64,000 bases of DNA from Sphagnum compactum (lineage: Eukaryota): contig OZ234493.1 of assembly GCA_965153455.1 (NCBI GenBank), forward strand, positions 3,100,001-3,164,000, given 5' to 3'. The position numbers were made by a program, and so were the translations under genes. This document shows, in pieces, positions 1 through 19,033 of the stretch. The number at the start of each line of letters is the position of its first letter. Position 1 is the first letter of the stretch. The notes under the pieces are model-generated. The model was not told where the DNA came from and searched no databases. It saw only the letters and a list, made by a program, of their open reading frames with translations.

Positions 1-312
1 GGCCTCCGCAAGAGACGTTGGACTTCGGTCCCTCGGCGACAGAAGCGCAGTCCAAAGGTGCTCAGGTGCTTTGCCGGAATACAACTGTTCTACCACTGAA
101 GGGATAAGCTCATCCGACAATTCCGTCCTCTGTGATGTGGGAGTAGAAAAGTCCTCGTCGGAGCTCATATTGTTGAGGTTACAACTCTCTGGCTTCACCT
201 CCTGGTTTTGAGCCGGCGAGTGTAAAACTGCGCCAGATGTATGCACAACATGAGAGGAAAAGGGGCATTCGCTTTCCCCACGACCGAGGCTTTTCGAACC
301 TTTGCTATCCAT
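1..312 (-). CDS. 5' part of an open reading frame running off the window edge (possible retroelement ORF1/gag or host gene)
   Basis: ATG at 312 followed by 104 stop-free codons to base 1 (MDSKGSKSLGRGESECPFSSH...DRSPTSLAEA). It is preceded by a ~700 bp leader that starts with the hairpin GGCGCT-N9-AGCGCC (985-1005). No domain recognised. Confidence 0.3.
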   Translation of the reverse strand, partial: MDSKGSKSLGRGESECPFSSHVVHTSGAVLHSPAQNQEVKPESCNLNNMSSDEDFSTPTSQRTELSDELIPSVVEQLYSGKAPEHLWTALLSPRDRSPTSLAEA

Positions 313-1744
313 GAAGTCCTGGGTGCAGGCTATGAGAAACACGAGAATATCCGCAGGAATAAGAGACTTGTTTAGAGTCGATCAACCCGGCACCTAAGCA
401 CGAGAACGAGAACCAAGCGAATTTAATAGAGAGTGATTCACCAAAACGGTAGCAAAAACAAGATTGGAAAGAGCCAACTATTTCAACGAACAAACAAAAC
501 GTACCTACTAATGGAACAAAGTTTGATGAAGAACGGCGTGATCCTTTGGAAGAACTTTGGCGAAAAGCTGGGGTGCGAACAAGACGCATAGAAGCAACTT
601 AGCCTAATGGGCTTTGATCTATTGAACTAGAGAGACGGAGAGCACTGCTGCTGAGAGGGAAGACAACCGTGTTGGAAAAGTATACGCAGGAAGGAGACTC
701 CTGGACACGGCACCTAACACCCCGTCAAAAAAGCTGTCACTGGCCCCGAAGCAGTCTTATGTTTTCTTTGAAGTTTAAGGGCAGAAGTTGAAGATTAGTA
801 CCGTTGCAGAAGGGTAGCGAGGATGTATGATGAGGAGTTGGAAAGTCCACCAGCACCAGTAGCAGAGAAGAGCGCGCGAAAATGGAACGAAAGCGTTGTT
901 GCAAGTGCTGAAGAGGAAGAAGCAGAAGTGAGTAAGAAGAGAGCGCCATCGCTGCAGCAGTGCAAGTACGTAAGCACCCTGACAGGCGCTCACCCAACTA
1001 GCGCCTAGGGAATTTTAAAAAAAACGTACTGGTTTTAACCCTAGGTTTTTGCCTCCCAGTTTCCCTCTGTGTGGTGTGTGTGTTTTTTTATGGGTGCTTT
1101 GCCCCCATTGGGTTTGATTTGCCGGCTGGAGTGAACCATAAAAAAACACCCATAAACAAAGCACCATGAAAAAACACACACAAATTTTATGGTGTTGTAT
1201 ATGTTTTTTTATGAGTGAACCAGCAGCCACCAATGCACCGTTGAGGATGAGGCCGTTCTAGCTGTTTTGGGGATGAATCAAAAACCCATCCTCTTCCCCT
1301 GCCCAGGGATTTTTCAGCCCCTTTCTCTACCCCAAAATTTTCCCCTCCTACCTACCTCCCCCCCCGCCTCCTACCTCCTTCATCACATTTCCCGTTCACT
1401 CCATCTCAAGAGCTTAGTAGAGCTCCTAAGCTTGAGCTGCACAGAGCTTCGCAAGCTCTCGAGCTTGAGCTGCACACAACTTCGCGAGGAAGGTGGAGAG
1501 CTCAACGTTGCAGGAACTTGAAAAGCTGAAGGAACGTGGAGAGGAGAAGGGTTTAAGGGAAGGCTTCATCTGAAATGCAGAAGCAAGAGAAGTAAGCTCC
1601 CTCCCTTCTTTGCATTTTTTTGTCTATGTGTTTTTTATTTTATTTTTTAGCTTGAAAAGAAAAAGACGCCATTGTCTTCTTCTTTAACGTTTTTGTTTCC
1701 TACCTACCTCCCCCTCTTGTCTTTTTTTGTGCTATTGTTGCAGC

Positions 1745-2345
1745 GGCAAAGAAGGCGATAACAAATTGCTACCATCGCCTTCTTCTCTGCCAGATCTTAT
1801 AGAGATGAAGAAGAAGGCGACGACAGCTATTGTTGCCTTCTTCTTTGCCTTTGTCGAATCTTGTAGAGATGAAAAAGAAGGCGACGACAACTGCCGTCGC
1901 CTTCTTCTTCTCTACCGGCTCTTGTAGAGATGAAGAAAAAGGCAATGACAACTGTCGTCGCCTTCTTCTTCTCTACCGAGTCTTGTAAAGATGAAGAAGA
2001 AGGTGACGTTGTCGTTGCCTTCTTCTTCTTTGCCTAGTCTTGTAAAGATGAAGAAGAAGGCGACACTATCGTCGCCTTCTTATTCTTTGTCGGGTTTTGT
2101 AGAGAAGTTGTCATCGCCTTCTTCTTTGCCTTCTTATGTGGTGGTGTTGCAGCAACGAAGGCTATGTCACCTTCTTTGTGTTTGAGAAGAAGAAGAAGAC
2201 GACAACAACTTCCGTCACCTTCTTCAATGGCTTTGTTGCAAACAAAGGCGACGACAACTGTCGTAGCCTTTTCCAATAGTTCTTCTATGGTGGTGGTGGT
2301 GGTGCTGTGAAGAAGGTGATGGCAGCAAATTACTATCACCTTATT
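1745..2345. repeat. Tandem array of ~60 bp palindromic units
   Basis: Unit ~AGAGATGAAGAAGAAGGCGACGACA-AC-TGTCGTCGCCTTCTTCTTCTCT plus a short linker, repeated about ten times with decay. Confidence 0.85.
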
Positions 2346-2428
2346 TCTTTTTTTTGGTCCTTTTGGTCTAGTTCATTAAAATTGAAAATTAACAATGAAA
2401 TGGTGGTTTTTTTATGTTGAAAGTTGTA

Positions 2429-3390
2429 ATGGCTAGAGGAAGGAGACTAAAGAAAGTTAGTGATTTTGAAGCTCCAAAGCAAAATGTTGCTTCATCAAAA
2501 CAAACAATTGGGAAGCAAAATTTTGATCTATTACAATCGAGATTTGGGGAGCAAAATGTTGTTCCATCAGAATTGAGAATTGATGAATCAAACAATTTAT
2601 GTGGCTAGAGTTGATAATGGTGACAATTTGCAATTCAAATGATGAGATCATTCCGAATATAGATTGGGAATTTCGATCAAAAAATGATGGGTTAAATTGT
2701 TTAAGAACTTACATACATTAGATTAAATGCAAATTAAAAAATTATACAAGTTTTTTTTAATTTAATTATATCTGCAGCTTCCATCATTTGATGGAAGTTG
2801 CGGGATCTTTTTTTGTCAAAAGTTTTTTATTACAATACCTGAAAATAGTTAGAGTTTGTAGGAGTTACATCTGATTATGTGATTTTATGTTTTGCAATAC
2901 TTGCATTTTATTTTTTGAACTATTTATGTGTAAGGTTTTAGGGTTAGGATTTTTTTATTACAAAGCAATGAATTTTTTTTTATAGTTTTTGGTTTAAGTT
3001 CGGAACTTGAAACCGACCAAGCTTTTTAGTCACCAACACCCCCTTGTCCACCTAATTTGGCTCTGAAAGACAAAGAATGGACGAAGGTTGGGTCAAAATG
3101 GAAGTGTAAAGTTGGCATTTACATTGTCGCATATTGTGCCAAATGGTTGTTGACCAAACATTTGAAGAAGGTGCATGGCTTGGTGGCAAAAAATGTCAAA
3201 CCTAGGAGGCTTTCAACTTTTTTAAGAGGTCTTTGACATCAAGACCATGTTAAAATGAATGCTCGCATTTTGGGAAATGTCGTGGCCAGATAAAGGCGAA
3301 ATGATCAAAAGGTTGTTAATCGCGCTTATGCCAAAGCATAGCACGAGTGGAATAAATTGATAACTGCTGCAAAACAATGTCCACCATTAC
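2429..3390 (+). pseudogene. MULE accessory gene relic with a C2H2-type zinc finger
   Basis: Probable first exon MARGRRLKKVSDFEAPKQN... from 2429. After an AG at ~2985 the frame reads ...WKCKVGIYIVAYCAKWLLTKHLKKVH... (C-x4-[Y]-x12-H-x4-H, 3105-3176), with scattered stops. Confidence 0.55.
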
Positions 3391-5423
3391 TTCTTTTTGT
3401 TTTGTGTTTATATTTTTACAATTCAACCTTTTTTACTTTCCTAGTTATTGGATATAAAAAGGGTGTCAAGTTTCATTAAATATACGACCATGAATAAAGG
3501 TTTTATACCTTTACACGAATATTTCATATTCAATATCTCTTTGTAGTTTGGTTTTTTCATACCCATATGTGAATAATGCATTGACTCCCCACAACCAATG
3601 TGCGTTTTATGGCCTAAAGTAGGTATTGCATTTTGCACCTCTCAAACAATGTGCATTAATTATCATTATGTGGGTATTGTTACATGGGGTTTTCAAACAT
3701 TGTGGGTTTAAGATACAATCCGGGTATTGCATATGTGGACAATTTCAATGATGGAAGGTTTAATAGCTCAATGTGGGTAATACCAAAGTTTGGTTTAGTA
3801 TATGGGTTCATAATGCAAGTATTGTACGTGATGTACATTGGAACATTAGGTATTTTATATCATGATATGGGTATTGTAATGGGAATTCCAAATCACAACA
3901 TTGATTTTAAAGGAACCATGTATGTATTGCATTTTGGGTTTTTGTTCAATGATGAATGTTTATAGAATTGTAAATTATCTTGGTGCATGAATTTGTCCTA
4001 TTTCTTTCAATCATGGGAAAAGTTCCAAAGTCCCATTTCATGTCCAAAACCCCACCAAGTCCCTTTTCTCAAACAAAGACTTGGTGTGGAGGTCTAGGAT
4101 ACGCCATGGAAGGCAAAATAAAGTGACCATTCAATTTGCTTATGTTGTATATGCTCGCATCTTAAAATTCTTGGAAGGTGAACGAGGTTGGAAGGTGAAT
4201 GAGGGGATACGAGCACCCCTATGGAATGGAATGTTTACAAAAACTTTCCAAGCCAAACGGATGTCAAGCAACCAAATATCAAAAACCACCCCGGGTATAC
4301 GTGGTAAACATTTATGGCATTAACCTTTTTAATTTTTTTAATTCATATACCAAAGATGTAATCATTTACATTTTGAAATTTTTTTGGTCTAAGTATCAGT
4401 GCGGATATGGACCAGAAGACTATCAAGAAAATTCAACCCACATTCGATCTATTAAACGAAGATGCCTAGTGTCATTCTCAATCAAACATCTATACACGGC
4501 CTCATGTGGTTGAGATCACAGTTTATCATAAGGCCCATACGCGAACTGATGGGTCATTCACACATGGTGAACATGACCCGGAATCCATTGTATGTCTCGT
4601 TATGTTCCATGCATGTCACAAACATTGAAGGACCACATATGGGCCCAACTAAGCTTAGGTTACACGATCAAACAAATATATAATAAGCATAAAACAATTT
4701 GGTGGGAACGTGTGAATGCAGGTCAAAGCATGACACGAGATGATTTCATTCGGCTTCAAGACATTGCATATTTAGATCAGAAACATAAGAAAGGGAGTTG
4801 GTGTTTACACACCAATCCTGCTATTTCAATTCAGTCTTGGGTTTTCCAACATCCGGAAAATGTGTTATTTTTCCAAGATGTTGGTGAAATCAACGAGACT
4901 CAAGTCCCATTCACCATAAGTATTCAAACACCAACTCAATGTGAGTCCATGCTATCATATGGTCACAATGGTGCCATTTCTATGGATGCCACATTTGGCA
5001 CAAATGACATGAAATTCCATCTATTCACCTTGATGGGGTTTGATGATCATCGCACAAGTGTCACTTTAACGTGGATCATTACAAGTAAGTAAATAGTTGA
5101 AGATTTGATCTAATGATTGAAACCATTAAAAGATAAGATGTTATCACACATGCCACATTGGAAACCATCACTTTTTCTCATTGATGATGCACTTCAAGAA
5201 TTGAAGGCATTATGGTTAGTTTTATACCTAGTACCTACTTTGTGTTTATTTCCTTCAATGTTTATTAATATATTTCTTTTCTTTTTTTTATTTCAAACAT
5301 AATGATTATTTTATGTTGTATTGACCCCATCCACTCATGGAGGTTTTATTGCATATGTGTCCTTATTAGGGTCGTATGGGGTATGGACAAGGTTCCCATC
5401 TACCTTTGTTGTTGGCATGTTTT

Positions 5424-8010
5424 CACTACTAGAAATTTTGGGTTTTGCAACTGTCGTTTGTAACTAAAATTCAGTTGCATGCGACACATGCAACTGCAAA
5501 TTTGTGTAGTTGCCTAAGACAAGTTGCACATGACATGTAGTTGCATGCAACACTACGTATGCAACATGTATATACGGTGCTAGTATACATGTTCATACAT
5601 ACATACTAATCCAAATGAGATGCACCTTATGTGCAACTTTTCTTGCAACTACAATGCAACTAATCAAAATATGACACATGTTTAAAAATTAGACAACTAA
5701 CTTATGGACACGTGTCATTATTTAATTTTTTGTGTTTTCAAAATTAAAAATTCATTGGATTAATTTCAATCATTAAAGTTTTTGCCACTAGGATGATGAC
5801 AAGTGGCACACCATGGAATGTCCATTGACCATTTAACACGTGTTCATTTTTAACACCAATTATATGGTGACACGTGGCAATCAAGGCCCACCTATTTTTA
5901 AATTTTTAAATATTAATTAATGAAATTTACGTCATCCAATTTATGGCTAGTAAGATGTTGACACATGGTGCCTAGGTAGGTAGGTAATAATTAAACATTA
6001 TTAAGTAAGTAGGTTTATTTAAGTATGTAAGTAGCTTGAAAAATAGTTAGGCTTAGGTTATAAGTAGGTTTAGAATAATGCGATTTATTTTTAGGTTTGA
6101 CCATTTCATAAAGGTTAAGTTTTTTTCATTCACTTGTCCCCAATGGCACATGGTATTTGGTTTCAACATAACTATTGCTCCTAGTTAAATACTGAGCCAA
6201 ATTTAATTGGAAGCCAAAGGATATGGGTTAGAACATTCCATTGCAAACCTCATGAACCAACCTAGTTGCACATTATATGCAACTATTGTATTAAAGTATA
6301 CCAGCCAGGGAGGGCTCTGTTGCTTTTGGTGTCCAAAAAAAACCTGAAGCCCTCCTCTTGGCGCATCTAACACACTAAGAATCATTGAAAACAGATTAGA
6401 AATGAAAAAGTTATGGCTCCCCAAAGTAAAAGGGGTCAAAAAACTCAAAAAAGAAACTATTGAACACTACAAAGGCTGGTTCTTAAACACCCAAAAAGTT
6501 CATTTTATGTTTTTTTTTGTTATTAGAGTTCCAATGTGATTTGTAGGACTTCAGATGGCGCTCCTATAGCACTTTAAATCGTTTAAAATGAATAAGAAAT
6601 AAGAAAGTTATGAACTTTGAAAGTAGGAGGGGTCCAAAGAAAAAAAACAAAAAACAAAACGTTTTATAACTTGGAAAGCTTATTTTTCTTATTTTTCTTC
6701 TTGTTAGTTTCTCATTACTCCTTTTCTTTTGCACTTCAAAGGTGATTATAGGATTATTTTAGTAATTATGATTACTTAATGAAAATATGATTTTAATATT
6801 ATTATCTAGTTTAAATTAATAATTAACTTAGGACATTTGTATCCTTGTAGGTTAATTAGTGTAGCCTATTTACATTAATATTTTAACATAAATAATAAAT
6901 TTTAAATATATAATACCTATTGATTATATATATATATAATCAATTATCACTATAATTATAATGAACATTTAATTAATACTTATGATTATTTATAATTTTT
7001 TAAATATTATCGTACTAATTAATTTTGAATAATTTTTTGTTTAATCAAATGTACATTTTCTGAAAAAATATTCCAAAATAAAATAAAGTCAAACATATTT
7101 AAACCATGGTTTAGTTTAACTTAATTTAATTTAACCATATTTATTTTATCCTAATTTAATTTAGCTTAATTTAGTTTAGCCATAATAAATATATTCTAAT
7201 TGATTTTAGCCATAAATATTATAGCCTAACTTAATTTAACCATAATTAGTCTGGCTTAACCTAATTTAACCATATTTATTTTAGCCTAGTTTAATTTAGT
7301 TTAATTTAGTTTAGCCATAATTAATATAATCTAATTTAATTTATCTTAACTTGATTTAACCATAATTAGTTTGGCCTAACTTAATTTAACCATAGTTAAT
7401 TTAAATTAATTTAATTTAGCCATAATTGGTTTAATCTAATAAATTTAGCCATGGTTAATTTTAGCCTAATTTAATTTAGCCATATTTATTTTAGCCTAAC
7501 TTAATTTAAGTATGGTTAATTTAGCTTAATTTAATTTAATTTAATTTAGCCATAATTAATTTATTTTAGCTTAATTTAACCATGGTTAATTTAACTTAAT
7601 TTAAATTAGCCATTATTAGTTTAGCCTAACTTAATTTAGTCATGGTTAGTTTAACTTTTTAGTTTATTTAGCCTAAGTTAGTTTAACCATGGTTATTTTA
7701 ACCTAAGTTAGTTTAGAGGTTATTTTAAACCCCTTAGTATTAGAGGTACATAATATTATTATATATAATCTATGTAGATATATTAAGTATAGTAATTTAA
7801 GTATGTATAAGTTTAAGCCATTATTTTTATGACATGTGTCCATGTTGTACACATTTAGTTGCATGTTAGTTGCACACACAACCGTATGGCCCAAAAATTA
7901 TACAATACCAAATTTGTAGTTGCAAACATGAGCAAGATAGTTACAAACGACAACCAGTTGCATGCTAGTTGCATAGTGACTGGTTGCAAATGACAAGATT
8001 TCTAGTAGTG
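5424..8010. mobile_element. Non-autonomous CACTA (En/Spm) element nested in the MULE transposase
   Basis: Perfect TIRs CACTACTAGAAA (5424) and TTTCTAGTAGTG (ends 8010). 3-bp TSD TTT/TCT with one mismatch. Subterminal AGTTGCA/TGCAACT repeats. Removing it restores WHVLKAW. Confidence 0.93.
7100..7715. repeat. AT-rich minisatellite inside the CACTA element
   Basis: Many degenerate TTAATTTA(G/A)CCAT(A/G) and TTAGCCTAA units. Confidence 0.85.
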
Positions 8011-9519
8011 TCTCAAAGCATGGCGCTTACGTGGTATTGAAAAAATCAAAGATGTGGAAGTGCGGGGTGGAAATCTCCAAGACCTTCATGATGTGATGTA
8101 CATGTCCATTAATCATGAAGAAATAATTGATGACTTCAAAAAGCGTGGGATGGTTGCTGTGAGAAAAAACCTTCATAAACATAGGCATGGTGATGCATGG
8201 ACAAATTACTTCTAGACTTATTACCATCAATTTGGTAAGTGATAATATTTATCATGGTTTAGTATTCAAAATTCTTTTGTAATAATGTTATTCATCCTTG
8301 TGCATTATGTTTATGTTTGCATAATTATGGATGGTGGGTGTTCGAAAAGTGACCCATTCCAACCAAGACACCCAAGCGAGCATTGAATCATATCATGGTG
8401 CATTGAAACGTTGGTTTGTTTTTGACACAAAAGGCCTTAAAGGGCATAGGATTGACTAGTTGGTGTGGCGATTAACAACAACCATTGCACACCACTACAT
8501 GCACACATTGGAAATGAAAAACAAAAGTTTCATAAAAACAAGGTTATGGAGGCCATTATTACACGAAGTGTGGAAAAGGCAGCCCTTATTCCACTCACCC
8601 ATGTGTACCAACCAACCCTTGAGAGTGATGGAGCTTGGGGTGTACGAAGCCAACGCCTTCCTAATGTTATTTATGCGGTGAAATTCTCATTCATCGAAAT
8701 ATTTTGTTGCACATGTGAATGGGCATTCCAAGGGAACATGTGTAAACATCAAATTTTCACATGCACAAACATTTCTCAAAAGGATATCATTCATTACTGT
8801 GGAACATGGTATGGATCACATCATGAAGGGTTGGGTCACATGTTTGCGAACCCACGACATATTCCAGATGATATGGAGTCTACTGATGATGACTAAAATG
8901 AACATCTTGAAGGTGGTGATGGGATCATGGAATTTGATGGGCTCATGAACATGGAGCAAAGTGATCTCCCTATGGGTGCCATTGTAGGGTCTAATGACAC
9001 AATATATTCATCAACCCAAATGGACAGGGCTCTTGCACAATTGGTCACTACAATGCAAGAGATCACAAATGAATGTAAAGAAGGCGATATGACACTTTGT
9101 GAACATGCCACCTCACACATGAGAGTATTGGCATGTAATATTCATAACATATGCCTCATAAAGGCAAATGCAGTTTTACACCCAGGATTGGTGTTACACC
9201 ACATAGAAAATGGATTGGGAAATAGTGTCAAACGGCTCAAAGATTGGCATGAAACAATGCTCAATCACACAAATGTACGTATTAAAGGCTGTCATGAATA
9301 AATGTCTCAATTACTAATCAAGACTGTTGCCATTAACACTAAGAATTTTTATTTTATAATCAATTTTGTATGAAGGAAACCATAGCCCAAATTTTGTGAA
9401 CATCATGTATTCAACACACACATGAAGTCTAATATGGCACAAAGCTTATTATTGTTTCCAAGTAATAAACACAAAAAATGTGAATTGCAAAAACACAAGG
9501 ATAATGATAATATTAATGT

Positions 9520-9802
9520 TAAATGCAGGTATTATAACTAGGCCCCAAAATCCCAATTGGTAGAAGTAAGTAGAAGTGCAAGTATTGCAATTAGGCCCCA
9601 AAATTCCAGTTGGTAAATGTAAATACGAGTGCAGGTATTGCAACGAAGCCCCAAAATTCCAATTGGTAGAGGTAAGTATGGGTGTAGGTATTGCAACAAA
9701 ACCCCAAAATTCCAGTTGGTAAAAGTAAATACGGGTGTAGGTATCGCAACAAAGCCCCAAATTTTCAATAGGTAGAAGTAAGTATAAGTGCGGGTATTAT
9801 AA
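9520..9802. repeat. 53-bp tandem repeat (~5.5 units) 3' of the MULE transposase
   Basis: Units GCCCCAAAATTCCA(A/G)TTGGTA...GGTATTGCAA. The GTAT core falls at 9529, 9582, 9635, 9688, 9741 and 9794. Confidence 0.9.
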
Positions 9803-12800
9803 GTTTAAATGAAGAATCAACCTTAAATGCAATACCCACGCTTCAAAAGAACCCATCTAGATGGTTTGGATACCTTTAAGTGAAGACCTAGCCCTAAACA
9901 CAATACCCACATGCAAGGTCACTTTGAAATTACCCAACCTTATATGCAATACTCGCATTCAAGGTCATTTTGAAATTACGCATGTGGGGTTTAAGCCTCT
10001 TTAAATGAAAATCTTACCCTAAATGCAATATTCGCATGTTGGGTCATTCCAAAATAATTAGTTAATTTCAAAATAGTATGCTAACAAAGGTGTGTATAGA
10101 GGTTGGGGTTGTTGATTAGGAGTTCCATGATTCTTACTTTGTTTCATTGAAATTGAAAAGAGGTTGTATTGTTTGTGGAATAAATAGTATAATGACAATT
10201 GTGATCAAACTTATTTTGGTGTACGAATTTTTCATGGAAAAGTTGAACTTGCAATCTACAACATGGAATAATTATCTTAAATAGTGATTTTAATAACTTA
10301 TTAAAAAAAAAACATAATTAAATTAATCTGCCAAATATCAAATTAATTAATCTAATTTTTAGATCCAACTTTTTATTATTCAAGTAAATAAAGTTAAACC
10401 AAATGATTAGTTATTATTTAAATAAATAAATGATTATCTAATTTTTGATAATTAATCCTTTAAATTATCTGAAATACTGGTCTATTAATTATTTAATTAT
10501 ATGACAAAATATTGTTGATAATTCATTAATTATCTAAAATATTTTTTAAATCATACATTAAATTGGGGGGAAATTTTTAGGGTTTAAACATATGTGAAAC
10601 AATAAAATTTCTTTATATATCTTTTTCAAAGATATTGGAAAAATTAGGCTGGAAAGATCATACAAAGTGAGAAGCAAACCTTATGTGAAACCCAACCTTA
10701 AATGCAATACAAAATTTATCAAGATCGAAAAATTAAAAGTTCAAGCTTAATTTTTTTTCGAATATGTTCATATTTATGTTTTTTCCATTTTAAAGTTGTA
10801 AACTCATTTCAAAAAACAAAAATATAAATTTTCTAATTTAATAAAATTTTAAATTATGTTTAAAAAAATAAATCAAATCACATGATTTTCTACTTATTTT
10901 TGTTTCACATAATAATAAAAATGATCTCTCTCGTATATTAATCCTATGTCTGATTGAAATTTTATTTTATACTTTTTAAATATATATTAAATAATTTCTT
11001 GGTTAAAATAATCATATAGTGGGTCAGAAACATTTTATATTTTATACATATATAACACAAGTCCTTGTGTAAACTTTATTTTTTATGATGTATAATATTG
11101 GTTTAAATATTGGTCCAAATATATTGTTATTTATAACACATTATATATAAATAATGATATTATAGAATTATATTTGTGATTCATTTCAATACACATAATA
11201 TTGTCATATTTATATAAAATTATTTAAATATTTAAATATTTATAAATTTTAAATTTTATATGTTAACCTATGGTTACGTATATTGCAATTATTTTTAATG
11301 AACTTTGTTTTTAATATGAATTTTTTAATTTCAAAATATTAATAGCTAAGTATGAAAATGTTCATAAGCTCTTAGAAGCTATGCCAGAGTTTGTGTGGAT
11401 TTGGAAGCTTTGTGAGGGCTAAGTTCTTATGTAATGTTTTCGACACCTTCAAAAGCTGAAACATGACTTGACTGTCCAAGAAACACAATAGTGTTCATAA
11501 AAAAACAACCAAGAATCTGTAGCCTTGACAAATTACTAGCTTCAACAAAAACTCATCACCAAGGCTGTTAAATTGACTAAAGTGTCGACATTGACCAAAC
11601 TAAACAACCTAGCCTAAACATGAGTAATAGGTTAGTAAGCTACTTGTTAAATAACCTAACTAACTACCTAGTAGGCTACCTACGTAATATAGGCCTATTA
11701 TGTAGTTTATTCACTTGTGTAAGCCTTATAAATTAATATCTTAAATGGCGTAGATAGGTATTGAAGGTGGTTGAACTTATTAAGTAAACATACTAGTTAT
11801 ATAGGTAGTTTTCTAGCCTAAGCCACGTAAGCCTAATAAGAATTTATGATAGTTTAATGTATATTCCTTATTATATTATAACATATTGAATTTTGAATTA
11901 AAAATAATTATTAAAAAAAGCACATTTTTTCATATAATTGTTATAAGTATATACTATTGGATTATGATTCAAATTTAGAGTTTGGGAAACCCTAAATTAT
12001 CTAACATTTTTTTACAAGTCTATAGTAATTAAAATAAATCTAAGGTGCATTTTAGAGGAATTTTATATGCAAAACAATCCAATATATATTGTTAAAGAAA
12101 GTGAAAGAAATCAGCTTGGAGATATTAACAAATGGTAAGAGACGTACCTTCTTTTATGTTTTGTTACAAATGTTATTTGATTATTTAAAAAATTAAAGTT
12201 AAATTTTTAATTGGTGAAAGTAAGTATGTGTGTGGATATTGCAAAATTATATGAAACCTTAACCCTAAATGCAATAGCCATATTCAAGTTCATTTCAAAA
12301 TAACCCATAAATGATTTAAATAAAACCTGTAGTGAAAGGGCAACTTAAATGCAATACCCACATGTAGGGTTGCTTTGAAATACCCAATATGTAGTTTGGG
12401 TGCGCCTTTGAGTGAAAACCAAAGCCTAGATGTAATACCTACATGCAAGTTCATACTAAAATAATCCATAGGTGATTGAGACAAACCTTATGTGAATACC
12501 TAACCCTAAATACAATACCCGCATGTAAAGTCAATTCAAAATAATTAATAAGTGGTTTAGGTACTCAAAATATGTCTTTTTATATACCTAAATTAATTAT
12601 TATTCTGAGTTGATTTTATGAAAAAATGTAGGTATTGTAATGAATGTAAAAAATCGGCAACTATTATGGGACCTATATGTGGGTATTGCATATTTGAAAA
12701 TGGCCATATGGAATTTATAATAGAAAATGATGTAGGTATTGCACAATGTTCATTTTGATCTTTATAAACCCTAGACAAATTAATGTTACCTATTCATATG

Positions 12801-13115
12801 GGCCTATTTAAGGTTTGAATTTTACATCTAAAGTATTAAGAAAATTATGATAAAGAAGACATATAGGATTAACCGTATACCCATCAAACAAGTGTGACTA
12901 GAAGAAAATATTATATTGATAAAAGATGTTCAAAAATGGGTGGATCAAAAATTGTTAAAGAACCCAATGAAAAAAAAAGGTTCTCTATAATACATCAAAG
13001 GACCAAAGTTCAAACATTGGGTAGTCCAAAAAATAAAAGGGCTGAAAAAACCTAACTAACTATACAAAGTGGAAACCTTAAACCATATCATTATCTACAA
13101 TCCCATGTTTAGCTT

Positions 13116-13772
13116 AGTAAGCAATTGTTGCATTTACAGCTCGTGCTGCATGATGAATAATGTATAGATGGCGACGTTGCATCTCAACCTGAACTGCATT
13201 TGCAACAAATTCTTCCTTTATTGTGTTGTGAACCCTATAAACACCCAAACACCACCAAATTAAACCCTAACACACCTTGGATGAAACAAAATTATTATAA
13301 AAAAAAGCATTGATTTTTTTTTTTTTACCTTCCATAAATCATTCTAGATTCATGGAAATCCAATACATTTGTCAACTCTTCTGTCCGACTTGCTTTAGTG
13401 GACCCTCGATCTCAATTTTTGACATCCCATGCCATCTTCAATCGTCATGCATATACAAAACAGATGGATCAAATCATCTCTTGTAAATCTTCATCTTTCT
13501 CCATCTGTGATGTTGTATCTTGAAGCACGCTTCCCACACCCCATGCATTAAGAACTAACACCTGCAACAGTTGCTCTGAAGCTAATTTGAGTAAAGCTGG
13601 TTTTGGGCTGCTACAAGTTGGTTGTCGTTTTCTAATAGAATGTTGCAAAAGACATATGTTAACAATTGTTCTTCAAGGCTTTACGATGAACATGAAGAAT
13701 GTGGGGAACTCATAATGTGGCAAACCCATTGACCTTCTTGGAGCAATGTGTTCTAACACTCTTTGATTGCCA
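13116..13772 (-). pseudogene. Decayed spliced ORF of unknown identity, probably transposon-borne
   Basis: Reads ...MEKDEDLQEMI*SICFVYA*RLKMAWDVKN*DRG...RMIYG, then a GT-AG intron, then RVHNTIKEEFVANAVQVEMQRRH...AY*. The TGA stops are consistent with CGA decay. Confidence 0.35.
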
Positions 13773-15346
13773 TTTATTAGTGTAAGTGATTTAAAAATCT
13801 GACCAAATTGATATTAAAACACAACGTTGTGATGAATGCAAGTGGTAACATAACTATAAGTTGAAGGGAGTACATTTCTCTACATTTTTTAATTACATTG
13901 CATGGGCTTTTGGTACATCCAACCATAACATAAATTAAATGACTCCCAAGGTTGTACATGAACACAATATACACTTGTTTAATTGTTGCTAATTTTGGTG
14001 AAACATGACTTTTGAAGTTATGGCATAATTCACCACATTTAGTAGAGTCTATGTGGTAGAAATTGTGAAGCTGCAAAGTTAATTTCCAAAAATTCCTATA
14101 CCACCATCTTGTCCAACAACTTTTGTGATGGTTTGTTCAATATTTGTGGTGGTTTTGTTATTTTTCTCACCTTGGACAAATTAAAATGCACTATTATTGT
14201 TTTCAAATTGCTTTAGATGTTGTGATTCAATTATATATTTCATTTGTGAGGTCTATTTGTATGTTATTTGAAAAGAATGTACAATTAATCCACAAAAGTG
14301 ATCATGCCCATTAACCTCAACAGGTTATGTTACAAGTGTAAATTATTCCTATATTATGTGGAATTATGAATATCCTAACCATATTGTTGTGTTGATTTCT
14401 TGTACATAAGGGGTAGAGGTCCATGTTCATTAAAGAATTTGTATTTTGGTGATCAAGAGTCCAAAAGGTCTAGAATCTTCATCAATCTTCAAGGAGGTAT
14501 GGGATTTGATTAAAATTTAGTCCACTGGATAACTACCCATGTACTACCATTGTAAATTAATGTAATTTCAAGCTATTTTGATTTTTTTTTAAAACTTATA
14601 GTTTGTTGTGTGTTTAGGTGAGTTAGGTTAGTTGTTTGGATGTACCACCATTTTGTTGTGGTTTGGATATGTTCAATTAGAAGAAATGTTTTTGTCAATT
14701 TGCTATGCATTTAAGGTGGGTTGCATGGTTGGCAAAGTTAGCTCCTTGGATGTATTGCCACTGCTTGAAAATATTGTAGTTTCAATATGTTCAATCAAAA
14801 AATAGATTGATGTTTGTCATGCATTTAAGGTGGGCTACAAGATTGGCAACTTGGTTGGCCATGTTCAACCATTATGTTGTGGTTTCAATACGTTCAATCA
14901 CAAAACAAATTTGATGTGGGATGTGTTTTTATTTTAGTTACAAAATTGGCAATCATTTATGTGTTTCAGAAGCTAGCTTAAACTTTCATGATCAGACTTG
15001 GAGGAATACTAGAAACCCAATTGAATCTTCTTGAAGGTTTGGAATTTGACTTATAGCTAGAAACAAGCTCCGCATACTACCATGTTTTTCTTCTATTAAT
15101 AAATATCCCACTAAGTAGGATCGAAAAATGACACATGAAGTTTAGGGTGTGTTTAGAGTTTGATCTACAAGTTTGGAAGAAGCCATAGGGTGTTAGGACA
15201 TGCAATCAATAATTTCAACAAACCGAAATTTACCCAACTTTGTGGGGTTACCCCCTTGATCCAATTGGGGTTACTTCAAATTGTTGAAATTGAAGGTATT
15301 TTCTTGGTGCATTCATTAGTCTTACTTGCATATATGTAGATGGCTA

Positions 15347-15603
15347 TTAAGAAGATTGCCAAGTTGTCCAAGTGGAAGAGACAACCAACTATTGCAACAA
15401 GGGGGCATAAAAGAAAAACACCTACTAAACATGGATGATGTGTAGGTATCACACAAGCATCAAAATGAACATGGTATAAAAAGATTACCAAGTTGTCCAA
15501 GTGAAAGAGACAATCAGTTACTACAACAAGGTGTAAAAAAAAAACACCTGCTGAACATGGGCAATGTGCAAGTATCACACAAGCATCAAAATGAACATGG
15601 TAC
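15347..15603. repeat. Two-copy ~128 bp tandem duplication
   Basis: AAGATT(G/A)CCAAGTTGTCCAAGTG...GTATCACACAAGCATCAAAATGAACATGGTA occurs twice. Confidence 0.85.
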
Positions 15604-16240
15604 TGTCCGGGTTCATTGATCCATGGATTCCCCAATGACCTCTTCATCACTCATTTTGAAGTATGCATTTATTTTGTTGTCATTAATATTGAACTTTATA
15701 TTGGAATGATGTTAAATGACAATCCAAATAATTGAGGTGTTGGAAAAAGATTGTTTTTGAATAGGCAACGTAAACAATGAGATAAAAACCCAAGGCATAA
15801 GTTCCAACTAACACATTTGGACATCTGCCTAAGTTTATTAGTTATTGGAATCTCTTCATGGGCATAGGGTTTTTGATTCCAAGTCATGCAAAGCATTGGA
15901 TTCCTCATAGTTTTTTATATCATCACTTAATTCATACCACCTAACAATTTTATCTTTAGTAAGGTGTGTTGTCAAATCATTTTTAGTTTATCTATGAATA
16001 ATTTGATTTTGAACATGGCTTATTTCAATTTCTCTATTGTGGATCTAGGGCACCAATAATAATGTTACAAGCCATTATTGTGAATCAAAGTCACAAGATG
16101 CCTCTATAGACTGTAATCGTAATCAAACTCTAAAAACTAGTTGTCTGGCTTTTGTGCGATTAATCATTCTTATGGGTCTAAGTTTACTAGGCTCAATACG
16201 AATTCATGGGCCTTTAGAACTTGCAACATGATTACAAGCC

Positions 16241-19033
16241 ATGGATGAAAAGTTGTGGCGAAGGGAAAAAGCCTATGCTAATGCAAAAAAATTGACCAAG
16301 CTTCCTTACAATTGCAATGTTTGCCATGGAGCCTGAGGGCTTGGACAAGGAAGTTGGTACGTCAACACCTTTACAGATTTGGATGTGATCTAACCTCACG
16401 CAACATCAAACTTGTTCTTGTAAGATTATGCTCCCTAAACTTGGTTTTAAATTCTTTGTAAGTTTGAGCTTGAATTACATTTAAATTAAGGGGGCCCATG
16501 TGGTTGTGGCAATGAATGACTTTGATGTTTGGGTTTTTTTTTCTACCTTTGGTTTTGTAGGATGCATCATCTAACTCCTCATATGAAAAATGGGTTGATG
16601 GAAGGGATCCTATTGTAACCCAACATGTTGATACACCATGTTGGCACCCAAAGTAATGAAGTGCCCAACACAGATGAAGTGGAATTAAAGGTTCATATGA
16701 TAGGAGCTCTAAATGATGCATGGTAGGCATCTAGGGTAGCACATGATGACATCCTACAACATCATGGGGTAGATCTCAATATGCAAAATCATGTTTTTGG
16801 TTTTACTAATGAGATGGAGTTTGAGATTGGGGGCGTGAACCAAACAACATTAGAGGATCCTCAAATTTTAAATTGCAAAGTCAAAGATTCCCTTGTATGA
16901 AGGATGGCAATTAAATAGGTTGACAAGTACATTCATGGTCCTTAATACTTATGCAACCCATAAGGTCACCAATGGATTTGTGGATGAGTTGTTGTTTTTA
17001 TTACGAAATTCAATTCTACCAAAACCTAACCATTTGCCTAGATCACATTATGAGGCAAAAAAGTTGATTCAAGGTCTTGGACTTGGGTATGTTTCAATTC
17101 AAGCTTGTGAAAACGGTTGTGTGTTGTATTGCAAGCAATATGCTACAATAGATCATTGATCAGTTTGTGGTGAAGTTTGGTATGTTTTTGGACTTAATAA
17201 GATGGCAAAGAAAGTCTTGAAACGTTTTCCCCTTATTCCTAGATTAAGGCGAATGTATCATTCACCAAACATTTCAAACCTAATGCGTTGGCACCATGCC
17301 AACAGAAGTCAAAACGGACTTGTTTGCCATGTAGTTAATTCCAAAACATGGGCACACATTGACAATTCATGGCCAAATTTTGCAAGTGATCCCCGCAATG
17401 TTAAGCTTGGGCTTGCATTGGATGGAGTGAACCCATTTAGGAATCAATCCACTACTTGGTGTACATGGCCAGTGACCATCCTAAATTACAATTTGCCTCC
17501 ATGGTTAACTATTAAGAAGTTATTTCTGATGCTTTCTTTATTAATCCTAGGGGAAAAATTGACGAAGAATAATAACATTGATGTTTACATGGCACCTTTG
17601 TTGGAGGAATTACATGAGTTATGGAAAGGTGTGGTTGCATGGGATGTGAGAAAACCAAAAAGGCATCACATGTTTACATTATGGCCTATTCTTATTTGGT
17701 CAATCCATGACTTGCTAGCTTACGGATTGCTTTCTGGTAAAGTGAACAAAGACTACAACGGTTGTCCTGCATGTGGCCCAAACGCATGTGTAGTCATCAT
17801 TCCAAAAAGCTTGGGAGAATTGTTTATGGATGTCACCGCAAGTGGTTGCAACCTACTCATCCATGGAGATCAAATGCAGCTTCCATGGGAAGTTTGAAAG
17901 AAAGGCAACCCCACCAGTCATGAAAGGATCTGAGGTCTTGGATCATGCTAATGCATATGAGATGTGGAAGTTGAATGGTGGGAAAAAAGATGATAACCCA
18001 TGTGTTAAATTAGAGTGAAGCGCAAGAACATTTTATTTGACTTGCCATATTGGAAGGTATTAGGACTAGAACCACATTAGGAAATTTAGTCTATTATTGT
18101 GTTGGGTACACAAATGGTGGGCATTTTTTTGCGAGTTTAAATGGACTACCCTTAGCTTCTATCTAAAACTTTCTTCATTTCTTTTCAAAACAAAGGCTAA
18201 CCTATGGCAATGATCTTTTGTTATGAACATTTTTGTGAATTTGTAAAACTTCTTAATATGACACACATTTAATTTTATGCATTGTGAGAATAATATGGCA
18301 ATTAATGTTTTGAAAACATTACTTGGTGAAAAAGATACAAAGAAGGTGCAGCATGATCTTTAGGCATGTGATATTCGACTTACTATGTGGTTATAGCCCC
18401 ACCCAACAAGGATTGGTGAAACCACCAACCCTATTGCCCCTTGGGTGATGCCTAAAAAAAAACGCCCTTTCTTTCTAGATTCCTTGGCCAAGTTGAATGT
18501 GCTAATTGGGTACAATGCAGGGTTCAAAAAACATGTAAAAGGTAAGCTCAAAGCTATGAAGTCCCATGATTATCATATTTTGTTTCAGCAAATTCTTCTA
18601 GTTTGTACAAAACACATAATGATTTAGGAGCCTAGGGTAACCATCTTGTGGATTTGTAAAATTTTCCAGCTCATATGCACCAAAGTATATGATCCATCAA
18701 CATACCATGTTTTGAAGGTTAGGATTATAATGACATTATGCCTTCTTAAGAAAGTATTTCCTCCTAGTTTTTTTGATTTAATGATGCACCTTGTAGTCCA
18801 CTTAATTGATGAACTCGACATATGTGGGCCTGTACATTTTTGTTGGATGTATCCCATTGAACGTGCCATGAAGGACTTGAAAGGGTATGTCCAAAACATG
18901 TGCAAGCTAGAAGGGAACATGGTAGAAGGATACATTTTTCATGAGACCTTAGGCTTTTGCGCATAATACATGCAGAATTTCACTCCAACCACAAGGCTTG
19001 TATGGGATTCTAATGAGGAAAAAGGGGTAGCAA
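16241..19033 (+). pseudogene. CACTA/En-Spm Tnp2 (TnpD-like) transposase relic
   Basis: ACENGCVLY, FPLIPRLRRMY, DPRNVKLGLALDGVNPF, YNLPPW, IDVYMAPLLEELHELWKGV, KSHDYHILFQQ, FPPSFFDLMMHLVVHL, GPVHFCWMYPIER. Has frameshifts and is truncated at the 3' end. Confidence 0.93.

Follow-up and report, generated by a model that had tools for sequence, protein, structure and literature searches.

A decayed two-gene Mutator-like transposon carrying phased arrays of a 14-nt motif

Structure of the locus

The window, which is the whole 64-kb stretch of DNA that was analysed, contained a decayed copy of a Mutator-like DNA transposon (MULE) that has two genes and belongs to a high-copy family of a plant nuclear genome. 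One gene encoded a transposase and the other a small zinc-finger protein, and arrays of a short motif occupied the non-coding DNA around them. We hold this structural description with high confidence, independently of any claim of binding. The coding parts and the rearrangements were the following.

2738..2972 (+): region upstream of the zinc-finger gene; one model of another copy (P0257) aligns from 2738
2973..3389 (+): zinc-finger ORF, 5' part (family residues about 9-148), interrupted by three in-frame stops
3105-3176 (+): C-X4-C-X12-H-X4-H finger; the second Cys is Tyr in the window copy
Between 3389 and 3390: breakpoint 1
3390..3616 (+): unique stretch from breakpoint 1 to array A; nothing similar elsewhere in the window
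4013..9301 (+): broken transposase gene, MULE + SWIM type, with several frameshifts and stops
4036-4182 (+): transposase N-terminal domain
4391-4590 (+): transposase Cys/His region of DNA-binding type, preceding the catalytic core
4577-5220 (+): transposase MULE/RNase H-like core
5424..8010 (no strand assigned): non-autonomous CACTA-type element nested within the transposase gene and foreign to the MULE
7100-7715: AT-rich satellite (15/30/60 bp) inside the CACTA-type element
8013-8215 and 8325-8459 (+): further transposase parts
About 8700-8750 (+): transposase SWIM-type CxC...CxH region
To 9301 (+): transposase C-terminal part
12746..13327 (-): region downstream of the zinc-finger gene; stop codon at 13325-13327, read from the sequence
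13328..13606 (-): zinc-finger ORF, 3' part (family residues 149-241), inverted relative to the 5' part
Between 13606 and 13607: breakpoint 2

The transposase contained the MULE/RNase H-like DDE core of the Mutator-like superfamily. The window piece 4577-5092 matched PF10551 (MULE) at E 3.8e-4 with 21.3 bits, below the 27.6-bit cut-off, and PF21056 (ZSWIM1-3 RNaseH-like) at E 8.2e-4. Among the full-length relatives, P0039 (44.1 bits) and P0051 (29.1 bits) exceeded the MULE cut-off. There were 531 relatives at E<=1e-3, and the assignment to Mutator-like elements made in an earlier note on this DNA was borne out. The Cys/His region was conserved in all full-length relatives.

A C-terminal SWIM-type zinc finger (CxC...CxH) is common in MURA-type transposases. 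Such a pattern was found in the ORF at 8456-8896; in alignments with P0039 and P0035, it fell on their SWIM region. Pfam SWIM scored 14-18.8 bits in four relatives, against a cut-off of 19.6, and gave no match in the window piece. The transposase was frameshifted and interrupted by stops, and the accessory ORF was split and carried three stops. This copy is dead, as had been proposed.

The nested insertion had inverted CACTA ends of 28 nt (86% complementary, starting CACTACTAGAAA; inverted pair I11), and was flanked by a 3-bp target-site duplication (TTT/TCT). The related copy P0001 lacked it and showed the empty site.

The accessory gene and the inversion

The extra C2H2-like ORF of the earlier note was present at 3030-3236, and it belongs to a separate second gene found throughout the family. 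Searches for it in other copies returned at least 221 protein clusters at E<=10, the best 120 of which were 69-85% identical. All of these 120 listed relatives mapped to the 5' part. By tblastn, the 5' part was 66-69% and the 3' part 67-70% identical to the intact relatives P0190, P0199 and P0237. None of the 120 had a gene model joining the ORF to the transposase. We also considered the ORF as the N-terminus of the transposase and rejected this, for the N-terminal domain mapped to 4036-4182 in all six full-length relatives that have it.

The family protein is about 205-225 residues long, and its one C2H2-spaced finger precedes a basic stretch. The finger had the classical spacing (C-X2-4-C-X12-H-X3-5-H) and conserved ligands. 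In an alignment of 15 sequences (A1), the first Cys and both His were invariant; the second Cys was kept in 13 and replaced by Tyr in 2. Profile and structure searches gave little more. The window ORF scored 17.6 bits against PF23077 (C2H2), below the cut-off of 27. The three intact relatives matched no Pfam family at E<=1, neither DUF1985/VANC nor C2H2, and no precomputed Pfam domain was present in the 120 listed relatives. The PDB held no sequence relative. The AlphaFold model was unusable (mean pLDDT 41), and the hairpin and helix at the finger position are not trustworthy. All Atlas leads to C2H2 clusters scored below 0.9.

The two halves of the ORF lay on opposite strands, at 2973-3389 (+) and 13606-13328 (-), which indicated a 10.2-kb inversion (3390-13606) cutting through the accessory ORF. 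Both parts were spanned by 46 of the 120 listed relatives. In 39 of these 46, the junction fell exactly at 3389/13606, residues being neither missing nor duplicated there. An error of assembly could also account for the inversion. Neither it nor the nested CACTA-type insertion had been described in the earlier note.

The limits of the element had been placed at 1005-12774. Neither limit was supported: the 3' half of the ORF at 13606-13328 lies beyond the right boundary, and homology to other family copies was demonstrated leftward only from 2738 on. Elements of the MULE superfamily are flanked by an 8-11-bp target-site duplication. The earlier note had the element lacking long TIRs. In this internally inverted copy, whose ends are undefined, no inverted repeat of at least 40 bp linked 1-4020 with 9300-17000 of the window. 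On the side of the transposase, the stretch 3390-3616 may form the element's subterminal end. The tail of P0271, a deleted model, resembles about 12990-13060 by eye, which suggests that 12746-13327 follows the zinc-finger ORF in another copy too.

When the inversion was undone on paper, the two genes would converge, with the arrays filling the interval that separates them and more motif copies just upstream of each. This predicted gene order comes from one rearranged copy.

The motif and its arrays

About 25 copies of a short motif had been reported for the element. Exact matches to RGTATTGYA numbered 18 in the 64-kb window, and 17 of them fell within 2831-12743. One of the 17 (7901) was inside the nested insertion, outside the element's own DNA. 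Shuffled sequences averaged 2.86 matches and had at most 7; none of 100 reached 18.

The conservation extended to five bases upstream of the 9-mer, positions that were not used in picking the sites. The longer conserved unit was the 14-nt ATGYRGGTATTGCA (also given as ATGYRGGTATTGYA). At up to two mismatches, it matched 29 times in the window: 26 in the arrays, one in the nested insertion and two elsewhere. In the shuffles, the mean was 3.51 and the maximum 10, and 0 of 100 reached 29. The reported number of copies was thus reproduced. The motif copies and arrays were the following.

2831-2844 and 2893-2906 (-): two motif copies in minus orientation, 95-155 bp before the zinc-finger ORF
3617..3931 (+): array A; seven plus-orientation motif copies with gaps of 51, 50, 52, 43, 52 and 53 bp
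9523..9801 (+): array B1; six plus motif copies in 5.2 units of a 53-bp tandem repeat (Tandem Repeats Finder, 80% matches)
9802..10072 (-): array B2; units of about 80 bp with four minus motif copies (9828, 9899, 9945, 10024); repeat families D4, D6 and D8
10073..12200 (no strand assigned): AT-rich DNA (about 23% GC) interrupting the arrays
10668-10710: isolated unit assigned to array B2
12201..12745 (no single strand): array C, in three parts, with 70% similarity to 9759-10060
12201-12245 (+): array C part 1, one unit of the 53-bp type
12247-12559 (motifs minus): array C part 2, four 80-bp units spaced 80/81/80
12613-12745 (motifs plus): array C part 3, three units of 51-53 bp

Array A ended about 80 bp before the transposase start, its fourth copy being a variant, and array B1 began about 220 bp past the transposase stop. 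The AT-rich DNA between B2 and C contained no recognisable ORF and no Pfam match; it may represent later insertions.

The motif occurred in both orientations, as had been seen before. The spacing was either 50-53 bp or, in a second series, about 80 bp. The former was seen at 3622/3673/3723 and 3818/3870/3923, in six copies 53 bp apart starting at 9528, and at 12631/12682/12735; these are the series reported earlier, whose coordinates had been one base to the right. The latter (80-81 bp) was seen at 12270/12350/12431/12511.

The earlier claim that the DNA between the motifs was not obviously repeated was correct for 3608-3960 and 12617-12772, where Tandem Repeats Finder made no calls at score 30. 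It failed for 9524-9798, the 53-bp tandem repeat. In a ten-unit alignment, the pairwise identity was 77% in the 14-nt block versus 35% in the spacers, the chance level being 29%. In arrays A and C+, the spacers had diverged to about chance level, and the 14-nt block and the 50-53-bp register were retained. The 51-, 53- and 80-bp unit types had unrelated spacers, the 14-nt block being their sole common part. On the other hand, two other blocks of the 53-bp unit were conserved across copies as well as the motif was, by a codon-level proxy. The motif in the 53-bp array is therefore not uniquely constrained.

The arrays in other copies of the family

The 53-bp array was found translated in 103 gene models from other copies. 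At least one exact translation of the motif was present in 97 of the 103, and at least two in 82. The gaps between motifs in these models were 17-18 residues in 126 of 171 cases. The phased arrays in non-coding DNA are thus conserved in more than 100 other copies. In many family gene models, the first residues translate the motif copy at 2893. Gene models of other copies also ran across the boundary where 80-bp units meet 53-bp units.

One copy, P0345, was internally deleted: about 9445 was joined to about 4218, and the transposase was lost. Some of array B survived in it, as did one or more units of array A, the last among them. Keeping the arrays and losing the transposase is the pattern expected for sequences needed in cis.

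Possible function of the arrays

The arrays are probably binding sites of a protein encoded by the element. This interpretation draws on the enrichment of the motif, the contrast between block and spacers, the register kept across the family, the structure of P0345 and the positions before both genes. ATGYRGGTATTGCA, recurring at intervals of 50-53 bp, about five helical turns, or of 80 bp, would provide multimeric docking sites. Docking may let the family recognise its own copies, serving both to build the transposition complex at ends that lack terminal inverted repeats and to activate the two promoters alongside. The weak Pfam and structural support for the finger counts against the docking interpretation.

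As to the protein that binds, we lean slightly towards the zinc-finger protein, acting as an accessory factor like TnpA or VANC, rather than the transposase. One C2H2 finger recognises about 3-4 bp, which is too short alone for a 14-bp site and counts against the zinc-finger protein as the binder. Possible, but less favoured, is that the transposase alone binds the arrays as subterminal recognition sites through its Cys/His domain, with the zinc-finger ORF a helper like mudrB or having another role or none. Ac-type transposases bind their own subterminal repeats. The Cys/His region before the catalytic core, common to all full-length relatives, would suit such a role, and in P0345 arrays remained to either side of where the transposase gene had been. 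The AtMu1c transposase binds motifs in the non-coding ends of its own family and causes hypomethylation and activation without an accessory protein (excerpt of bioRxiv 10.64898/2026.08.24.746577); it is the model for this alternative, although AtMu1 differs in having one gene, terminal inverted repeats that hold the sites and, in that excerpt, no phased arrays. Against the transposase as sole binder, much of the array DNA would lie between the genes, not at an end, once the inversion is undone. Motif copies also lie upstream of the second gene, and some account would be needed of why the second ORF, with its conserved finger, occurs across the family.

Removal of DNA methylation from its own family by the zinc-finger protein, as an independently evolved anti-silencing factor bound to the arrays, we consider unlikely. 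VANC21 of Arabidopsis binds YAGTATTAY arrays formed by tandem repeats in the non-coding DNA of VANDAL21 (Hiun) (excerpt of PMC5735166). The earlier note had proposed a VANC-like system, and the target anatomy agreed with that account: dense short motifs with a GTATT core, in one orientation per array, built from tandem repeats in non-coding DNA upstream of genes and between them. Both elements also have an accessory ORF beside a Mutator-superfamily transposase. The GTATT/AGTATT core overlaps the VANC21 motif, possibly by coincidence. The accessory protein itself did not agree: its finger is C2H2-spaced, and the three intact relatives gave no match to DUF1985 (VANC) or any other Pfam family. 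The motif here is also longer (14 nt), its spacing is strictly 50-53 or 80 bp, and no third ORF was found. The AtMu1c result further means that an accessory factor is not required for hypomethylation and activation.

About equally improbable is that the zinc-finger ORF came from another repeat or a captured host fragment and merely adjoins the MULE, which would make the locus a composite of at least two elements. The ORF is split and inverted in the window copy, the 120 listed gene models all leave it unjoined to the transposase, and MULEs frequently capture host fragments (excerpts of PMC6446971 and PMC2528002). Opposed to this, copies of the same 14-mer lie to both sides of the ORF: upstream, at a site that other copies retain, and downstream (12626-12743). 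The minus strand also continues from the 3' part of the ORF, with no detectable break, into array types shared with the 3' flank of the transposase.

A shade less probable still is that the arrays are functionless internal satellites, sharing the motif through common descent of the units or gene conversion. Tandem repeats are frequent inside transposable elements. The 53-bp array is young and clean as tandem repeats go, and its equally conserved other blocks fit this explanation. It does not account well for arrays A and C+, which kept block and register with spacers at chance level, for a block common to three unit types in both orientations, or for a register retained in other copies.

Comparison with other transposons

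The arrangement of motif arrays is a variation on known self-recognition systems of transposons, not a new kind of system. In En/Spm (CACTA) elements, the accessory DNA-binding protein TnpA acts on many short motifs, in both orientations, in non-coding subterminal DNA, and serves transposition and promoter control. TnpA has been described as a regulator (excerpt of bioRxiv 10.64898/2026.08.24.746577). Its 12-bp subterminal repeats would correspond to the arrays here, and TnpA to the candidate binder. En/Spm differs in superfamily, in producing its proteins by alternative splicing of one transcript and not from a second gene, and in its CACTA terminal inverted repeats.

The gene order of maize MuDR is convergent, as is that of the window copy after the inversion is undone. 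MuDR differs in its long terminal inverted repeats, within which lie the promoters and the site bound by the transposase. To our knowledge, mudrB has no zinc finger, and phased internal motif arrays have not been described for MuDR. MuDR (mudrA/mudrB) is likewise a two-gene MULE (excerpt of PMC6446971). Accessory C2H2 ORFs in MULEs are already precedented in the same excerpt: Mutyl (Yarrowia), whose MutB is ascribed a DNA-binding role, and Spectre (aphids) both have a second ORF with a C2H2 zinc finger. These are fungal and insect elements with terminal inverted repeats, for which the excerpt reports no motif arrays, and the likeness to the window ORF is by description only.

It is conceivable, and in our estimate improbable, that this MULE lineage built its own self-recognition module independently of VANDAL/VANC. 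Such a module would be a small C2H2 protein acting on ATGYRGGTATTGCA arrays phased at about 52 bp, before and between both genes, and activating or de-silencing only its own family. The C-terminal half of the protein may derive from a duplicated transposase N-terminal domain; the similarity between the two was weak and not significant. If true, such an origin would add a second case in which a transposon's regulator arose out of its transposase.

Distribution of the motif

The nonamer RGTATTGYA occurred 18 times in the 64 kb, and 17 of these matches lay inside 2831–12743, one of them (at 7901) within a foreign nested insertion. In dinucleotide-preserving shuffles, the mean was 2.86 matches and the highest count 7, and none of 100 shuffles reached 18. 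The enrichment in the element region, reported in the earlier note, was thus borne out.

Alignment of the instances extended the conserved block to 14 nt, A-T-G-Y-R-G-G-T-A-T-T-G-C-A. The five bases upstream of the 9-mer had played no part in the selection of the sites. With up to two mismatches allowed, the 14-mer gave 29 matches (26 in the arrays, one in the nested insertion and two elsewhere), against an expectation of 3.5 and a maximum of 10.

The 14-mer can be read as two TGYR tetramers on either side of GGTAT (TGYR-GGTAT-TGYA), as at 9629–9642 and 12677–12690. The centers of the tetramers are separated by about one turn of the helix, a distance that would fit a dimer or a DNA-binding surface made of two parts.

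Arrangement of the arrays

Most of the motif copies fell into three arrays: A (3617–3931), B (9523–9801 with 53-bp units, B1, and 9802–10072 with units of about 80 bp, B2) and C (12201–12745).

Motif copies in the element
2831 and 2893, minus strand: two copies
3617–3931, plus strand: seven copies, spaced 51, 50, 52, 43, 52 and 53 bp apart
9523–9801, plus strand: six copies, spaced exactly 53 bp apart
9828–10037, minus strand: four copies, spaced 71, 46 and 79 bp apart
10703, minus strand: one copy
12230, plus strand: one copy
12270–12524, minus strand: four copies, spaced 80, 81 and 80 bp apart
12626–12743, plus strand: three copies, spaced 51 and 53 bp apart

The DNA between the motifs had been described as not obviously repeated. 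This held for 3608–3960 and 12617–12772, in which Tandem Repeats Finder at score 30 detected no repeat. On the other hand, the same program resolved the 53-bp series as a plain tandem repeat (5.2 copies, 80% matches), so the description fails there. When ten units were aligned, the mean pairwise identity was 77% in the 14-nt block and 35% in the remainder, with 29% expected from composition. In 3608–3960 and 12617–12772, the motif and its register were retained while the spacers had drifted to noise.

The arrays between the two genes are split by very AT-rich DNA (about 23% GC) at 10073–10667 and 10711–12200. No ORF, no Pfam or Rfam match and no clear ends were seen in these stretches, which may be later insertions.

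Arrays in other copies of the family

Other copies were examined as predicted proteins and gene models in predicted-protein collections. The translated 53-bp array retrieved 103 gene models from other copies. Exact translations of the motif were present at least once in 97 of them, at least twice in 82 and at least three times in 55. Successive motifs were 17–18 residues (51–54 bp) apart in 126 of 171 gaps, and most of the other gaps were multiples of that distance.

By a codon-level proxy of conservation, the 53-bp unit has two further blocks that were retained to the same degree as the motif. What speaks for constraint on the motif itself is thus chiefly the arrays with free spacers, together with the block common to the three unit types.

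One of these predicted proteins, P0335, is a translated non-coding 53-bp array that one source named a bacterial LptF permease, an annotation error in a public collection.

Split of the second gene and limits of the element

The second, zinc-finger ORF is divided in this copy. In tblastn, residues about 9–148 aligned to 2973–3389 on the plus strand, and residues 149–241 to 13606–13328 on the minus strand. Both parts were spanned by 46 of the 120 listed relatives. The junction was exactly 3389/13606 in 39 of these 46, with no residue lost or doubled, and no transposition-type target duplication was seen there. A splice-site account was rejected, as no GT follows 3389 and no AG precedes 13606 on the relevant strands. 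With an exact junction and no splice signals, the segment 3390–13606 is either inverted or wrongly assembled.

Neither limit given for the element in the earlier note was supported. The right limit had been placed at 12774, short of the 3' part of the ORF. The left limit had been placed at 1005; homology to other copies was seen only from 2738, and 1005–2737 had no link to the family. A search for terminal inverted repeats gave motif-level matches only.

With the inversion undone, the two-motif upstream region is followed by the zinc-finger gene and then, after about 580 bp, by arrays C and B; next come the transposase gene, on the opposite strand, and array A. The two genes then converge on an intergenic region filled with arrays.

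Judged from gene models, parts of this reconstructed order were confirmed in other copies. Models crossed from the 80-bp units through the 53-bp array into the 3' flank of the transposase. Many began with the translated 2893 motif, so this copy of the motif keeps its place upstream of the zinc-finger ORF elsewhere. In P0345, a gene model from an internally deleted copy, about 9445 was fused to about 4218, and the transposase gene was lost, with arrays kept to either side of it.

The zinc-finger protein

The ORF at 3030–3236 is not confined to this copy: of 222 candidates, 221 protein clusters matched it at E ≤ 10. The best 120 listed of these clusters were 120–250 residues long and 69–85% identical. 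The family alignment described a protein of about 205–225 residues with a single C-X4-C-X12-H-X4-H finger, of which the first Cys and both His were invariant and the second Cys was present in 13 of 15.

Three intact family members matched no Pfam family at E ≤ 1. This indicated that the ORF does not encode a VANC/DUF1985 protein. A PDB sequence search with the zinc-finger profile found nothing (best E 1.3, unrelated), and an Atlas search with the protein gave leads below 0.9 only. The AlphaFold2 model, built with 15 close relatives, had a mean pLDDT of 41.

The possibility that the ORF represents N-terminal exons of the transposase was rejected, as the N-terminal domain of the latter maps to 4036–4182, downstream of array A. 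It did so in a single frame in all six full-length relatives that possess the domain; three relatives without it gave no match there.

A weak likeness was noted between 13328–13520 (minus) and 4036–4182 (plus). Homology of the C-terminal half of the ORF to the N-terminal domain was not significant (BLASTP E 0.11; hhalign 0.2% and 1.4% over 14–16 columns). If the likeness were real, the accessory gene would be derived from a transposase fragment.

The transposase gene

The transposase is encoded by plus-strand ORF pieces at 4013–9301, with weak Pfam matches to the MULE and ZSWIM1-3 RNase H-like domains. At E ≤ 1e-3, 531 relatives were found among 1.84 billion representatives. Short fragments at 50–95% identity made up many of the 150 listed, which points to a high-copy family. 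Full-length relatives of 617–1048 residues with matches to MULE and, below the cut-off, to SWIM were also present. A PDB sequence search with the transposase profile found nothing.

The gene is dead, as the earlier note had concluded, with several frameshifts and stops and a 2.6-kb nested element. The latter (5424–8010) is a non-autonomous CACTA-type element. The inverted ends of this element are 28 nt long, 86% complementary and begin with CACTACTAGAAA; the duplication is of 3 bp (TTT/TCT). Most of the interior is an AT-rich 15/30/60-bp satellite (7100–7715). In P0001, a related copy without the nested element, the site was uninterrupted.

Possible role of the arrays

The best-supported reading, which we consider probable, is that the arrays are candidate multimeric docking sites for a protein encoded by the element. 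Docking would allow the family to recognize its own copies for transposition, and would drive the two adjacent promoters. It might also act against silencing, although the specific VANC-like version, with removal of DNA methylation by the zinc-finger protein, appears improbable. The anatomy of the arrays matches that of the TnpA sites of Spm. Judged from sequence alone, it is also the same as that of VANC21 targets, as these are described in PMC5735166. The VANC21 motif, YAGTATTAY, has the GTATT core in common with the motif here, which may be chance.

As to the binder, we lean slightly toward the accessory finger protein over the transposase. Binding by the transposase only is somewhat unlikely, but the transposase carries a conserved Cys/His region of its own, and in bioRxiv 10.64898/2026.08.24.746577 a MULE transposase was sufficient by itself to bind its own ends and cause hypomethylation. 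That the locus is a composite of unrelated elements appears improbable. We regard it as very improbable that the arrays are functionless satellites. The equal conservation of two other blocks in the 53-bp unit would fit such satellites, but spacers at noise beside a retained motif and register, and a block common to three unit types, argue against them.

Extra ORFs have precedents among MULEs (mudrB, vanB/vanC, MutB of Mutyl and the C2H2 ORF of Spectre; PMC6446971), and plants commonly harbor MULEs of the non-TIR kind (PMC2528002). The unusual point is that this plant MULE combines a second gene with C2H2 spacing, present across the family, with a 14-bp motif arrayed in strict phase ahead of both genes and between them. 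The literature outside supplements yielded no account of a plant MULE that has both a C2H2 second gene and phased arrays, which is weak evidence of absence.

If the second protein binds the arrays, the strategy of VANDAL/VANC and Spm/TnpA, an accessory protein with an amplified target motif, would have been invented independently with a different fold. This would support the repeated evolution of self-targeting regulators in DNA transposons, and would offer a simple pair of protein and 14-bp motif for sequence-specific epigenome tools. If the transposase alone binds, the locus would be an ordinary, though tidy, example of MULE subterminal binding sites. The unusually strict 50–53-bp register with free spacers makes a clean test case for the role of helical phasing.

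Neighboring features

The window is plant nuclear DNA of 23–49% GC, with RING-finger, sugar-transporter and kinesin genes. Pfam gave nothing in 16 other ORFs of 1–2700 and 10100–14800, and Rfam gave no match. A CACTA transposase remnant at 17160–18966 (Transposase_21/tnp2, E 2.5e-50; DUF4218, E 1.6e-32) is unrelated to the MULE finding.

A 57–61-bp tandem repeat of 5.4 copies (1748–2105, also 2186–2270) lies immediately to the left of the element, in DNA of higher GC content (47%). Its unit holds a palindrome of about 40 nt, rich in GAAGAAG/CTTCTTC, around GGCGACGAC...GTCGTCGCC. No link to the MULE family and no Pfam match were seen for this repeat.

Just right of the studied region, a stretch of about 128 bp is duplicated in tandem at 15348–15602 (84% identity). 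At 14632–14920 are three units of about 114 bp with a 13-nt stretch identical to the 80-bp array unit just past the motif, and with degenerate motif-like pieces. They may represent an older or related array beyond the second breakpoint of the putative inversion.
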